Below are positions 42,470 to 47,381 of a DNA stretch of 55,265 nucleotides, piece after piece. The DNA is from Promethearchaeota archaeon Loki_b31 (GTDB lineage Archaea; Asgardarchaeota; Lokiarchaeia; Sigyniarchaeales; SOKP01), in contig NJBI01000017.1 in NCBI GenBank assembly GCA_005222975.1, positions 1 to 55,265 of the forward strand, given 5' to 3'. The notes beneath the pieces were generated by a model that saw only the letters and a list, made by a program, of their open reading frames with translations, searched no databases and was not told the origin of the DNA. Each line of letters begins with the position of its first letter. Position 1 is the stretch's first letter. A program made the translations under genes and the position numbers.

Positions 42470-43069
42470 ATGAATATCATGAATGTCGACGAAATACTTT
42501 CAGCTGTAAGAACTTTCGCATATAATAATTCTGAAAATGACGATCTCCATGGTTTTAAACACGTTAAACGAGTACTTAATTTATGTGTGGAAATAGGGAC
42601 TGCTTTAAATGCGAATTTATTGATAATTAAAATAGCTGCCTTACTTCACGATGTTGGTAGAATTTATGAGAAAAAAAATGATGCAAAGAATCACGCTGAA
42701 ATATCCGCTGAAATGGCTGAAAAATTTCTACAAAAAACTAACTTCAACATTAGTATTGACAATATTGCAAATATTATTCACAGCATTCGAGCACATTCTT
42801 TTTCGAATAACATTAAACCTAAAACTCTTGAAGCTAAAATATTGTCGGACGCAGATAAACTAGACGCGCTTGGAGCAATAGGTTTATACAGAACAATTAT
42901 ATATTCATTTAAATTGAAAAATGGTGGAATAGAGAAAGTAATTGAACATTTAGAAAAAAAAATAATAAAATTAAAAGATCGAATGTATTTAGACATTTCA
43001 AAAGAAATAGCAAAAGAAAGACAGAAAATTATCTTAGATTTTTATTATGAAATAAAAAAGGAAGTGTAA
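42470..43069 (+). CDS. HD-domain phosphohydrolase; host gene of cassette copy 3
   Basis: H..RV, AALLHDVGR, HA, DADKLDALGAIG. Confidence 0.85.
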   Translation: MNIMNVDEILSAVRTFAYNNSENDDLHGFKHVKRVLNLCVEIGTALNANLLIIKIAALLHDVGRIYEKKNDAKNHAEISAEMAEKFLQKTNFNISIDNIANIIHSIRAHSFSNNIKPKTLEAKILSDADKLDALGAIGLYRTIIYSFKLKNGGIEKVIEHLEKKIIKLKDRMYLDISKEIAKERQKIILDFYYEIKKEV

Positions 43070-43164
43070 TATCTAAATTTTTATACTTTTTTGAAAACCA
43101 CCTTCATTTTTCTTTCCTTTCAAGTCCTATATTCGAACATAAAACTTCTTGTCACAATTTGTTC

Positions 43165-43198
43165 TTTAAATATATATGCCATAATTAGGTAGTAAAAG
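43165..43198 (+). promoter_or_regulatory. Conserved cassette leader TTTAAATA-N10-AATTAGGTAGTAAAAG
   Basis: Identical 8-mer and 16-mer to copy 1, same spacing. Confidence 0.7.
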
Positions 43199-43215
43199 AA
43201 TTATGATAATAAATT

Positions 43216-43827: not shown

Positions 43828-46800
43828 AAGCATACACCAATGTATCACGGAAAACCGTGGGAGAGGATCGTGTAGCAATCTGCCCTACTTTTGGATGCGA
43901 GTACATGACACGAGTTAAGCCTCTTAAATTTAGGTTCTTAGGTTTTGGGAAGCATCCTAAATGCAAGAAACATCACATTCCTTTAGTATATGTTGATGAA
44001 AGAATCGTTGATTTCGTGGATGCTGCCCTAGCGTGCTTGTTTGATAAAGCAGGACTCCCCCCAAGTGAATTACTCGAGGGTGTAAAATCAAAATTTCATA
44101 ATGAAGTTACCTCGTTTGTAGAGGGATGGGTGTATTGCATCACGGCTGGAAGGGGTGTGTCCATTATTTCACGTTACATGGATACGATTTCGAATGCGTA
44201 TCTCAAGCAATTAACCAAGAAACAAATTAAGGCACTTAAAAAGGGAGATGATTCAAAACCAAATCTCGTGAATAAGACGATTAAGGATGGAATGGATGAA
44301 ATTACTATTCAATATACGAGGATTCTCAAGCACCTGAGAGCTCATTCCGAGATTCTCATTGATCATCAAACGCTTAAATCACTTTCTAAAAATCTCCGAA
44401 ATTATTTGAAGGATTATCAAAAGACCATATTAAAGCGCAATGAGATCATTAATTCTCCAGAAAATAAGCGCGAAATGAGTTTAAAAGAAATCAAGAGTAA
44501 TTATGATCAAATCCTAAATGTCGGGACATGCCGTTGTCTTCTTGGATTGAATCCCGAAAGTAAAGAAATCAAGAAAGCAAAAATAACTTCATTTGATAGA
44601 TTTTCTGCTTATCATGAATTTTTTAGTGAAGGATTAACTGGAAAATTTACAAAATCCGCAATCTGTGATTTAGTAAAAACTAAGTTCACTTATCAAGATA
44701 ATATTGATATACTTGATGAGACAAAATATAAAATTCCCTTTCAAAATCAAAAACCTAAAAGTATCATGACAGTTAAATGTACTCAAGAAGAACTTCTAGG
44801 CAAAATTTTTAAGTTCGGGGAATCTCTACAATTAGGAATTTTAACGATATATTATATTTGTGATATATTTCCAAAAAAGAATGAAATTGATAAGTTTTTT
44901 TTTTCTGGAAAGGAATTAAGTCAGATTCTTAGCAGATCTGAATTTTTTTTTAATAATATTAGAAGGGAACTGTTAGACGAAAATTTTGTTCAATACTGCG
45001 GAACAATTTCTAAAAAAAAACATAGCTTTGTAAAAATTTATACAATTACAAAACAAGGCGCAGATTTTGCAGCGGAAATTATTGAGTCAAAAATACAAGA
45101 ATTTTCTAATCTTTTTAATGATTTAACCCTCAGATTAGAACAGCGATATAAAGAATATAATAAAGAATTAATGTCCTCAGAAAATAACATTGTTATTCGT
45201 TCAATAGAAGAAATCAATAATGATTTAAAAAAAATAGCTGAAGAAAACAATGCTAAAATGCTCACTACATACAAATCTGATGAAAATAAAATAATTTTTA
45301 GATGTAAGGAATGCAATAAAGAATTTAAAGATATATACAAGAATATAAAAAGAAGACAAGAACCAAAAATAGCTTGCCCTTTCTGTTTTCCAGAATTAAG
45401 ACCTAACACTTATATTCCTGAAGAATTAAGAGAAAAAATTGCAAAATATGTTTTAGTTGAATTAAGACAAATTACTATTTACAATTTAGTAGAAAAGGAA
45501 ATTTTAGAAAATATAGTTTCTATAAGAGATTCTGTTTTCAGACAAATAGAAATCAAAAAGGTTCCGAGTTTATACAATAGAATTCAAGCTGATGCCGATT
45601 TTAGACAATATATTAAGAATTATATTCAACTTATCGTTAAGCTTCTTATAAAAATAAAATTATTAAATGAGACCAAACAAAAAATAAATATTACTGAAGT
45701 AGCAAAAGAAACTCATGATAAAAATATAGTTTCCTTAAAATCTTGGGTTGTTTTTTCAACGAAGATTATTCAGTATTTAAGACAAAATCTTGATTTTAAT
45801 ATTAGATCACGTCATCATGATACATTCCAAAAATCTACTCAAGTATCGATTAGGAATTTTAGGAATTTGTATAAATTAATTGATGATATTACAATTACTT
45901 ATTTGAAAAAAGATTTACAGATGAAAATAGATATTCATTACAATGGAATATGTCAAGGAAATAATGGAACTTGTCAATTCAATGTTGATTACAGATTCTT
46001 ACCTGCTCTCTCCCATCACCATCTACTCAAAAATTACAAAAAACTCATAACAAGAAAAGAATTTAAATATATCCTTCCTCATACTATTCTAAACTTAAAA
46101 TTTGAGAGAGCTATTAAATTAATGCAGACTCAAATTGGTGGATTAGGTTTAGCATGTCTGAATTGCCATTTTTCTAAACATCATGTAATATATAATTTTT
46201 CACCGATTTTTACATTTCTTCAGAAACTATCCTTAGAAAATATCAATGAAAATCCATCAGATGTTTTAATCAAATTGAAGTCATTAGTAAGCATATATTA
46301 CAACCAAAAAAAAGAAAAAACTAAAATGTCTAAAAATTACACTCAAGCTCAACAAAAAACAATGATAAAAGATGGTATTAGAAAATCGACTTTAGCATTC
46401 GTTAAAAAAAAATATAGTATTCAGTTTCTATTTGGAAATGATTATGTTTGTCCTATTTGTCGAAAAGCTAATATTAATGAACACCTCAATTGTTTTGTTG
46501 CTCATCATACTAATGAAGATATTTTTAGAGATGATCTTGAAAAAATAGAATTTGGTAAAGAATATAAAAAAAAGGATATTGATTGGTTAATTGAAAATCT
46601 AATTATTCAAGAATGTGTGTTTATTTGTATAAATTGTCATCAAATGCTTCATGCTGTAAATTTTCGAGATTATGCTCTTACTATCTTGGAAAGTAAAACC
46701 GATAAGATATTTGTAAGGAATTATTATAGTCAATTAGACAAACAGATAAGTAAATTAAAAAATAGAATCTTAATTTTTAAAAAAAAAATTGAAAATCATT

Positions 46801-47204
46801 TGATTCAAATTCCAAATCCGTTACAGTTAATTTTTGAAAAGGGAGACGGTTTAAAGAGAAATTTAATATGTATTTACTATATTTGTGAAATTTTTTCAAA
46901 AGATAAAGAGAATCCTTTTTTTACTTCTGGTGAGTTGAATTTTATTATTAATAAGGCGCGTTCATTTAGGAATTTTAAACATAAATTAATTCATCTTGAT
47001 TATATACAAGCTGTTGAGAATTTTCAAAGAATTTATCATATTACTCCTAAAGGTAAGGAAAAAGCAAGAGAATTGATTAATCAAAAATTAGATGATTTTC
47101 CGAAAAGATTCAGAGATTTAATTGACATTTGGGAAAATAATTACGTAGAATATCAGCTAAAGATGAAACAAAATAAATATTTTTTTGGAAAAGAAATTTT
47201 ATAA
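43824..47204 (+). CDS. Cassette ORF-B3: conserved head + wHTH + Zn ribbon + two Zn-binding HNH-like domains + second wHTH
   Basis: IYYIC[DE]IF...F..GEL...Y.IT..G twice; CKEC..CPFC; C...C..LSHHH..CLNCHFSKH; CPIC..VAHH..CINCHQMLH. Confidence 0.8.
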   Translation: MKAYTNVSRKTVGEDRVAICPTFGCEYMTRVKPLKFRFLGFGKHPKCKKHHIPLVYVDERIVDFVDAALACLFDKAGLPPSELLEGVKSKFHNEVTSFVEGWVYCITAGRGVSIISRYMDTISNAYLKQLTKKQIKALKKGDDSKPNLVNKTIKDGMDEITIQYTRILKHLRAHSEILIDHQTLKSLSKNLRNYLKDYQKTILKRNEIINSPENKREMSLKEIKSNYDQILNVGTCRCLLGLNPESKEIKKAKITSFDRFSAYHEFFSEGLTGKFTKSAICDLVKTKFTYQDNIDILDETKYKIPFQNQKPKSIMTVKCTQEELLGKIFKFGESLQLGILTIYYICDIFPKKNEIDKFFFSGKELSQILSRSEFFFNNIRRELLDENFVQYCGTISKKKHSFVKIYTITKQGADFAAEIIESKIQEFSNLFNDLTLRLEQRYKEYNKELMSSENNIVIRSIEEINNDLKKIAEENNAKMLTTYKSDENKIIFRCKECNKEFKDIYKNIKRRQEPKIACPFCFPELRPNTYIPEELREKIAKYVLVELRQITIYNLVEKEILENIVSIRDSVFRQIEIKKVPSLYNRIQADADFRQYIKNYIQLIVKLLIKIKLLNETKQKINITEVAKETHDKNIVSLKSWVVFSTKIIQYLRQNLDFNIRSRHHDTFQKSTQVSIRNFRNLYKLIDDITITYLKKDLQMKIDIHYNGICQGNNGTCQFNVDYRFLPALSHHHLLKNYKKLITRKEFKYILPHTILNLKFERAIKLMQTQIGGLGLACLNCHFSKHHVIYNFSPIFTFLQKLSLENINENPSDVLIKLKSLVSIYYNQKKEKTKMSKNYTQAQQKTMIKDGIRKSTLAFVKKKYSIQFLFGNDYVCPICRKANINEHLNCFVAHHTNEDIFRDDLEKIEFGKEYKKKDIDWLIENLIIQECVFICINCHQMLHAVNFRDYALTILESKTDKIFVRNYYSQLDKQISKLKNRILIFKKKIENHLIQIPNPLQLIFEKGDGLKRNLICIYYICEIFSKDKENPFFTSGELNFIINKARSFRNFKHKLIHLDYIQAVENFQRIYHITPKGKEKARELINQKLDDFPKRFRDLIDIWENNYVEYQLKMKQNKYFFGKEIL

Positions 47205-47381
47205 GACTATGGATTTACTTTAAGAAATAAAGGGGGCATCGAACAAGTAATTAACCATTTGGAAAATAAAATCTTGAAATTAAAGGATGGATTGTACTTA
47301 GAAGTCTCTAAACAAATCGCAGAAGAGAGAAGTAAAATAATTATAGACTTTTATAACAAAATGAGAGAAGAAAGAGTGTAG
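47199..47381 (+). repeat. Displaced diverged 3' end of the HD gene
   Basis: Reads GFTLRNKGGIEQVINHLENKILKLKDGLYLEVSKQIAEERSKIIIDFYNKMREERV*; 30/48 aa identical to the C-terminus of 42470..43069. Confidence 0.9.

Follow-up and report, generated by a model that had tools for sequence, protein, structure and literature searches.

A putative free-standing homing-endonuclease element carrying a replacement gene end in an HD-hydrolase gene of Lokiarchaeia

WHO elements occur at the FBA1 gene of Torulaspora and Lachancea yeasts and consist of a single intein-like gene encoding a LAGLIDADG-zinc-finger protein, which homes in diploids (Coughlan et al. 2020, PMC7282813). Fungal mitochondria contain mORFs with a foreign C-terminus, described for atp6, atp9, cox2 and nad3 of Glomus (Beaudet et al. 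2013, PMC3630166) and, from Paquin et al. 1994 as cited there, for atp6 of Allomyces macrogynus. SegF and SegG of phage T4 are free-standing endonucleases that carry out intron-less homing (PMC12724721). Here we analyse a comparable locus in Promethearchaeota archaeon Loki_b31 (Lokiarchaeia; assembly GCA_005222975.1, contig NJBI01000017.1, 55,265 nt). The whole stretch is called the window and is contig C46 of genome G000 in our comparison, where G numbers denote genomes, C numbers their contigs and L numbers other compared loci or contigs. An element of 4,312 bp (42899-47210) is inserted after codon 143 of a gene for an HD-domain hydrolase, with zero host bases lost; it contains a foreign 56-codon HD tail, gene A and gene B. 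We consider these three parts to form a free-standing homing-endonuclease element that spreads by intron-less homing, and give this reading a probability of about 0.75.

As in WHO elements, a free-standing endonuclease gene appears to be enclosed by a resistant, full-length gene whose 3′ end has been replaced and, downstream, a 3′ fragment, which in the yeasts is the second homology arm; discordant 5′ and 3′ histories, decay and deletion are further common features (PMC7282813). WHO elements mostly occupy one host gene, whereas the element described here is a two-gene cassette with an HNH-type region in an archaeal chromosome, and its family has various nuclease classes at no fewer than 32 sites. 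The gene B product (B3) has no LAGLIDADG or intein match, and the host gene encodes an HD hydrolase; the element works like a WHO element and is not a member of that family. With the mORFs it shares a foreign in-frame C-terminus gained between species, an endonuclease gene and a native C-terminus stranded directly behind it, the native piece being close to relatives and the inserted piece distant (PMC3630166). The mORFs differ in being single LAGLIDADG or GIY-YIG reading frames of organelle genomes, with neither a partner gene nor a constant N-module. Like SegF and SegG, the presumed nuclease gene sits beside its target, resistance would come from sequence replacement, nuclease clades follow insertion sites and the resistant sequence may be inherited without the nuclease (PMC12724721). 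In the phage, however, the recipient sequence is replaced and not displaced, and there is no stranded tail and no two-gene module. Prophages that integrate in icd bring an attP-borne gene end; with e14 and phage 21, the element-borne tail restores the gene and the native tail comes to lie at the far end. The HD gene is likewise restored by an element tail, with the native tail at the far end, but no tyrosine integrase was recognised, and the shared core at both junctions and the precise excision that also characterise e14 and phage 21 are not seen here.

The window carries, in order, ACS (acyl-CoA ligase-like, a name assigned from motifs), the HD-hydrolase gene (42470-43069), gene A, gene B and a second HD tail; all features are on the plus strand unless stated otherwise. 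The resident 5′ part of the HD gene (codons 1-143, 42470-42898; Pfam HD, E = 1e-19 for residues 29-133) has 92-94% DNA identity to the other alleles of the clade, both filled (HD gene with cassette) and empty (G041 and G040). A first-pass annotation of the window had placed a crossover near the LYRTI codons that end this part (42884-42898). The empty alleles and the genus consensus make this exact: the left junction lies directly after 42898. In the genus, LYRTI is followed by G-F/Y-T (GFT or GYT), which matches the piece downstream of gene B. The element-borne replacement tail (42899-43069; 56 codons plus stop, in frame) instead starts with IYSFKLKN where the genus has GFT..N, and is one residue longer. 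Its identity is 100% to G017 and metagenome contig L164, 99% to G039 and L167, and 74% to empty G041; the G041 allele is 94% identical to the window in the 5′ part and 91% identical to the downstream tail.

Gene B ends in a TAA stop codon (47202-47204). The frame behind it is open for 58 codons up to a TAG at 47379-47381, and the last 56, from the GFT at 47211, are HD-like, in agreement with the uninterrupted frame recognised at first. The right junction had been thought to coincide with the nuclease stop codon; it actually lies 6 nt beyond, after the spacer GACTAT (47205-47210), which is identical in G017 and G039. The stranded tail (47211-47381; 56 codons, open, startless at the junction) is followed by the last codons of a convergent TrmB-domain gene in their native position (47382-47403, minus strand; repeat D4 and alignment with G005). 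In G039, the downstream tail adjoins an intact convergent TrmB-domain gene, exactly like the HD gene in empty G041 and G040. The 21 nt preceding the stranded tail show a weak, gapped likeness to the LYRTI codons (p 0.03-0.04), a likeness that could be left over from a microhomology join. The same arrangement is present in G017, G039 and L164, and L167 contains the left junction and most of gene B. Since these independent assemblies have the same structure, the misassembly that the first-pass annotation had allowed for does not account for it. The diagnostic junction sequence is shared by genomes labelled Promethearchaeota or Promethearchaeia (equivalent to Lokiarchaeia); the exact B3 coding sequence had no match among contigs on record.

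The two HD tails are related. Counted from GGIE, 30 of 48 residues are identical, the same value as in the earlier count; tblastn gave 62% identity (E 7e-15) and blastn 73% over 152 nt (E 1e-19), compared with five of 250 control pairings at E<1e-4 (best 1.5e-5). In a tree of the last 114 alignment columns, the distance to the cassette-free alleles of G041 and G005 is 0.03-0.07 for the downstream tails; the upstream tail is separated from this resident group by at least 0.46. Separate phylogenies of the two ends had been proposed as a check: the downstream end groups with the empty alleles, and the placement of the upstream end lacks support. The reverse assignment, an upstream end that is native and a downstream end unrelated to the locus, was also considered beforehand, and the opposite was found. 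By these comparisons the downstream tail is the native one, stranded behind the cassette, and the upstream tail is foreign. Synonymous divergence (dS) between the tails is 1.2-3.0 and non-synonymous divergence (dN) 0.22, with dS values of 0.16-0.19 between the host species. The low dN at such a dS argues that the incoming tail evolved as a working protein elsewhere, and bears out the proposal that both ends evolved as functional alleles. Both tails diverged under constraint at the protein level, the downstream one now being a startless leftover.

Three carrier species of the same genus were compared (the window, G017 and G039). Identity between them is 99-100% in the incoming tail, 98.9-99.1% in the final 526 codons of gene B and 97.4-99.1% in the nuclease region. 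The corresponding values are 93.9-96.4% for ACS, 93.2-93.9% for the HD 5′ part, 93.6-95.3% for the stranded tail and 92.6-94.7% for gene A. As the incoming tail and the nuclease (together 98.7-100%) are more alike than the host flanks (93-96%), the element moved between species after their split. Each host has its own version of the stranded tail, which fits repair with homology on both sides; later spread with the stranded tail as right homology arm would most simply account for this pattern.

Decay and loss are seen at the same site, which is filled in some genomes and empty in others. In G039 a deletion of 191 nt shifts the frame of gene B, and L165 has a broken tail. G005 and L166 lack the cassette and have kept the first 45-65 nt of the incoming tail, a patch defined by DNA alignments (42899-42963). 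The switch back to the native tail occurs at short shared stretches, at 42936-42943 in L166 and at 42953-42963 in G005. These patched alleles either lost the cassette independently, when one tail recombined with the other, or stem from repair in which the patch alone was copied. We also considered G005 as the ancestral empty allele, with a single crossover at 42953-42963 and Campbell-type integration; this was rejected, as the genus consensus, G041/G040 and L166 identify it as a patched post-loss allele. The six genomes of the clade have a full-length HD gene without the conserved Gly codon of the site (three filled, one patched, two with Ser, namely G041 and G040), and 25 of 26 sequences outside the clade have the Gly; its loss is what nuclease pressure would be expected to leave.

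The patch is present at two loci of G005, one of them in a G004-like background and possibly contamination. At this locus (L033, G005:C16, positions 1-240) a patch identical to that of the window's tail sits on a G004-like tail, and the neighbouring TrmB-domain gene has only 51% identity. The HD patch thus appears to have reached a more distant lineage, with the caveat that the contig may be contamination of G005.

The replacement tail is followed by intergenic element DNA, a presumed promoter (43070-43215), with similar sequences upstream of other A genes (repeat D1 with cassette 1; 80% identity to the C72 cassette); a promoter scan of this segment gave no signal above shuffled sequences. Gene A (43216-43827) encodes an all-helical protein of 203 residues (model pLDDT 80) and overlaps gene B in an ATGA. 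It matched no Pfam or PHROG family, and the best atlas hit in a fold search (TM 0.37) was nothing clear, from which neither a new fold nor the absence of a family follows. Gene B (43824-47204, an open frame of 1126 codons) begins with an N-module of ~280 residues, which ends at a KFTKS motif (43824-44660). A 43-row alignment shows a CxxxxC...CxxH putative zinc site and a helical bundle (model pLDDT 85); fold searches reached at best Z 5.4 (rmsd 3.7, 77 residues aligned) and no Foldseek match at E<0.001, a null that, as for A, implies neither fold novelty nor the lack of a family. We rejected the KFTKS motif as a DNA recombination site: its third codon positions vary freely, and only one protein of the acidic class described below contains it.

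The variable region of B3 (44661-47204) is a putative site-specific endonuclease. A motif scan located a zinc ribbon (residues 494-521) and HNH-type motifs (residues 710-786 and 876-943), and two winged-helix-like segments were read by eye. Parts of the region matched PHROG HNH profiles (E 0.011 and 5e-5) and atlas features gave 0.90-0.91 to HNH clusters, all weak matches below curated cut-offs. The predicted complex of A with the B N-module scored 0.80 (best control, 0.01); 58 of 80 solved pairs and 2 of 110 mismatched ones attain the mark used, and these numbers are rough here, where we used our own alignments. Contacts agreed by at least 90% between runs, the partner pLDDT was at least 76, and the predicted interface falls on conserved residues of both alignments. 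The prediction supports binding of A to the N-module, and A is most likely a regulator or chaperone of the nuclease.

Homing at this locus can be pictured as follows. The C-terminal region of B would cut naive HD alleles at or near the LYRTI/GFT codons, and the break would be repaired on incoming or sister DNA carrying the element, the HD 5′ part serving as homology arm on the left and the stranded tail on the right. The recipient would gain the donor tail, A and B, and its own tail would be displaced downstream. Carriers would be immune because their target site is split and recoded. Gene B is an independent reading frame that follows a complete HD gene and lies within no intron or intein. 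For the founding event, the tail would have come from a lineage ~26-28% divergent and outside our sample, with one non-homologous or microhomology join directly behind the B stop. The original proposal of a homologous left and an illegitimate right end is thus required for the founding insertion alone and not for later spread. The cassette would later be lost when the two tails recombine, and a patch of 45-65 nt would still cover the site. The module predicted to bind A would be exchanged between paralogous cassettes, the nuclease region staying with its site.

G000 contains eight A-B cassettes, and the module was detected in 20 of the 42 genomes in the genus and in 30 of 151 across the order. 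The N-module has 103 representatives among 1.84 billion proteins and was not found in viral contigs with the query used. We fetched 46 long cassettes, which fall into 32 downstream sites, the minimum for the family. Their variable regions have HNH, GIY-YIG (weak), LAGLIDADG/intein-like or DEDD-type matches. Where two C-regions are at least 55% identical, their cassettes have a common downstream site in 20 of 22 pairs; where two N-modules are at least 75% identical, this is so in 6 of 79 pairs (kin are not independent). The nuclease therefore follows the site, while the module has been exchanged between paralogues. Cassettes at the same downstream site often differ in their upstream flanks, and the reverse (L103, L104, L105, L111, L107; L043/L082; L099/L100), which suggests rearrangement by recombination between paralogous A-B modules.

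A second class of nucleases has long, acidic, repetitive N-regions of up to ~1,200 residues (G000:C1 23738-29314, minus strand; also C13, C41, C5, C54, C66 and C96). The C1 protein is 90% identical over its last 615 residues to the B protein of L096 (G005:C69), lies at the same downstream site and retains the last dozen residues of the B N-module. N-regions have thus been exchanged between the acidic and A-B classes. At L043 (G000:C72), 2.4 kb upstream of gene A, a frame of 714 codons separates A from the duplicated gene end and is possibly cassette cargo. In another family of the order, a distant N-module heads an open frame of ~1,920 residues (G059:C436 5176-5787, minus strand).

The first-pass annotation had noted the tail swap at cassette 1 and took its recurrence at the HD gene as a sign of a general mechanism. 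The recurrence is real, but the swap is not how the family is generally laid out: of 31 testable sites, four have a clear duplicated gene end (HD, the cassette-1 gene, acr3 in G017 and a membrane-protein gene in C72) and a fifth has a borderline one. At acr3, C72 and the borderline site, the duplicated gene converges on B, in mirrored geometry. Many of the other cassettes have inserted cleanly between genes that neighbour each other in G000. The signature is also not specific to cassettes. A nuclease gene without the A-B module (G000:C99 10371-11570, minus strand) has the last codons of a gene stranded 22 nt behind its stop, and the shared signature reflects free-standing nucleases in these archaea, not a fixed cassette rule. 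Another such nuclease (G000:C5 15207-18179, plus strand) has a diverged copy of upstream sequence directly behind its stop.

Two other cassettes of the window were compared. At cassette 1 (4250-4460 and 7590-7720; L135), the stranded piece is similar to the G004/G008/G037 lineage, and an upstream-type tail is found in the G039 allele, which has no cassette. G039 may be a patched allele here, or the stranded piece a relic of an earlier host; the history of this site is less simple than that of the HD site. At cassette 2, two copies of a promoter-like segment bracket acr3 and the cassette (24804-24888 and 29385-29469; L088). In G017 another acr3 3′ end persists on the side of gene A; the window shows just a trace of it.

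A third piece of the native HD tail lies further downstream in the window, as an in-frame fusion to a truncated GNAT gene (50092-50174; 94% identical to 47321-47403), and is followed by the intact TrmB-domain gene. It is not at this place in G017 or G039 and is a later, separate rearrangement. The two copies form an 83-bp direct repeat that flanks a membrane-protein gene and the truncated GNAT gene. G017 has the membrane-protein and GNAT genes and lacks the TrmB-domain gene here, and the reverse is true of G039 and the empty alleles; near the fusion, the window looks like a recombinant of these two layouts.

Several other explanations of the HD locus were weighed. The tails are direct repeats flanking a cassette, as an in-place duplication of the gene end (a target-site duplication) followed by divergence would produce. 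Empty alleles and independent contigs already refute both this and an assembly artefact, and in-place duplication is further excluded because the unused copy is still open and host-like despite a dS of 1.2-3.0; we give these explanations next to no weight. Precise insertion at a junction without loss of host bases would also suit an integrative element, in which A and the N-module, conserved at all sites and without an assigned function, would be an unrecognised site-specific recombinase and the tail an attP-borne gene end. But the two junctions share no core beyond the weak likeness described above, the site tracks the nuclease region and not the conserved module, and neither A nor B matched a family of tyrosine or serine recombinases or DDE transposases (fold nulls do not exclude a family). 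The patch and the two different switch points in cassette-free derivatives mean that loss was not a precise excision. We consider an integrative element improbable, and equally so a passive passenger on a piece of foreign DNA, brought in a single time through homology-facilitated illegitimate recombination and spread afterwards by ordinary gene flow without nuclease drive. Such a passenger accounts for the founding geometry, other allele swaps are found nearby (the repeat around the GNAT fusion), and recent codon changes in the B C-region give no clear sign of purifying selection (5 synonymous and 10 non-synonymous relative to G017, 9 and 9 relative to G039). It leaves unexplained the identity peak over tail and nuclease region, the empty relatives altered at the exact site, and the recurrence of the layout beside nuclease genes.

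The family also resembles polymorphic toxins, with a constant helical N-module, a helical partner encoded upstream and predicted to bind it, and interchangeable nuclease C-regions that also occur in the acidic class, once at 90% over 615 residues and at the same site. A and the N-module would then deliver the nuclease to neighbouring cells, cutting alleles without the replacement tail; the recoded site would be immunity and homing a by-product. Against this, no immunity gene follows B (the stranded HD tail does, after 6 nt), the C-regions are arrays of DNA-binding and nuclease segments of 400-850 residues typical of homing endonucleases, no secretion system was linked and no known delivery module gave a fold match; delivery and by-product homing together seem unlikely to us. 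Some points also weigh against homing itself. Pattern scans found no donor of the upstream tail, the nearest sampled sequence being that of G013 (75%). Approximately unbiased (AU) tests on the 114 columns, which have low power, did not reject forced groupings (p 0.43 and 0.14), among them the upstream tail as sister to the resident clade (p-AU 0.43). The HNH assignment of B3 draws on motifs and sub-threshold matches, most of the 31 testable family sites have no duplicated tail, and the high identity between species could also stem from ordinary homologous transfer of a beneficial allele. Finally, no homing element that we know of explains the role of A and the N-module.

The tail swap as such is already known from yeasts and fungal mitochondria. 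What is new is the modular A-B family, of which a literature search of incomplete coverage found no description in Asgard archaea, together with evidence for a complete homing cycle among Asgard species. Homing requires two alleles in one cell. Three species with 4-7% divergence have a near-identical element at a single chromosomal site, and this points indirectly to exchange and recombination of chromosomal DNA between species of Lokiarchaeia. The HD junction provides a precise candidate target, so that cleavage by B can be tested in vitro, and the family represents a pool of at least 32 probable rare-cutting nucleases, each with a mapped site, behind an unclassified two-protein module. Swapped tails make hybrid genes, which can mislead Asgard phylogenies. 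A rather unlikely, more far-reaching idea is that A and the N-module form a novel heterodimeric device, common to dozens of site-specific nucleases that are otherwise unrelated, which brings the nuclease into partner cells or links it with DNA exchange; if this were true, Lokiarchaeia would run a modular inter-species gene-drive platform in which the swapped tail confers immunity.

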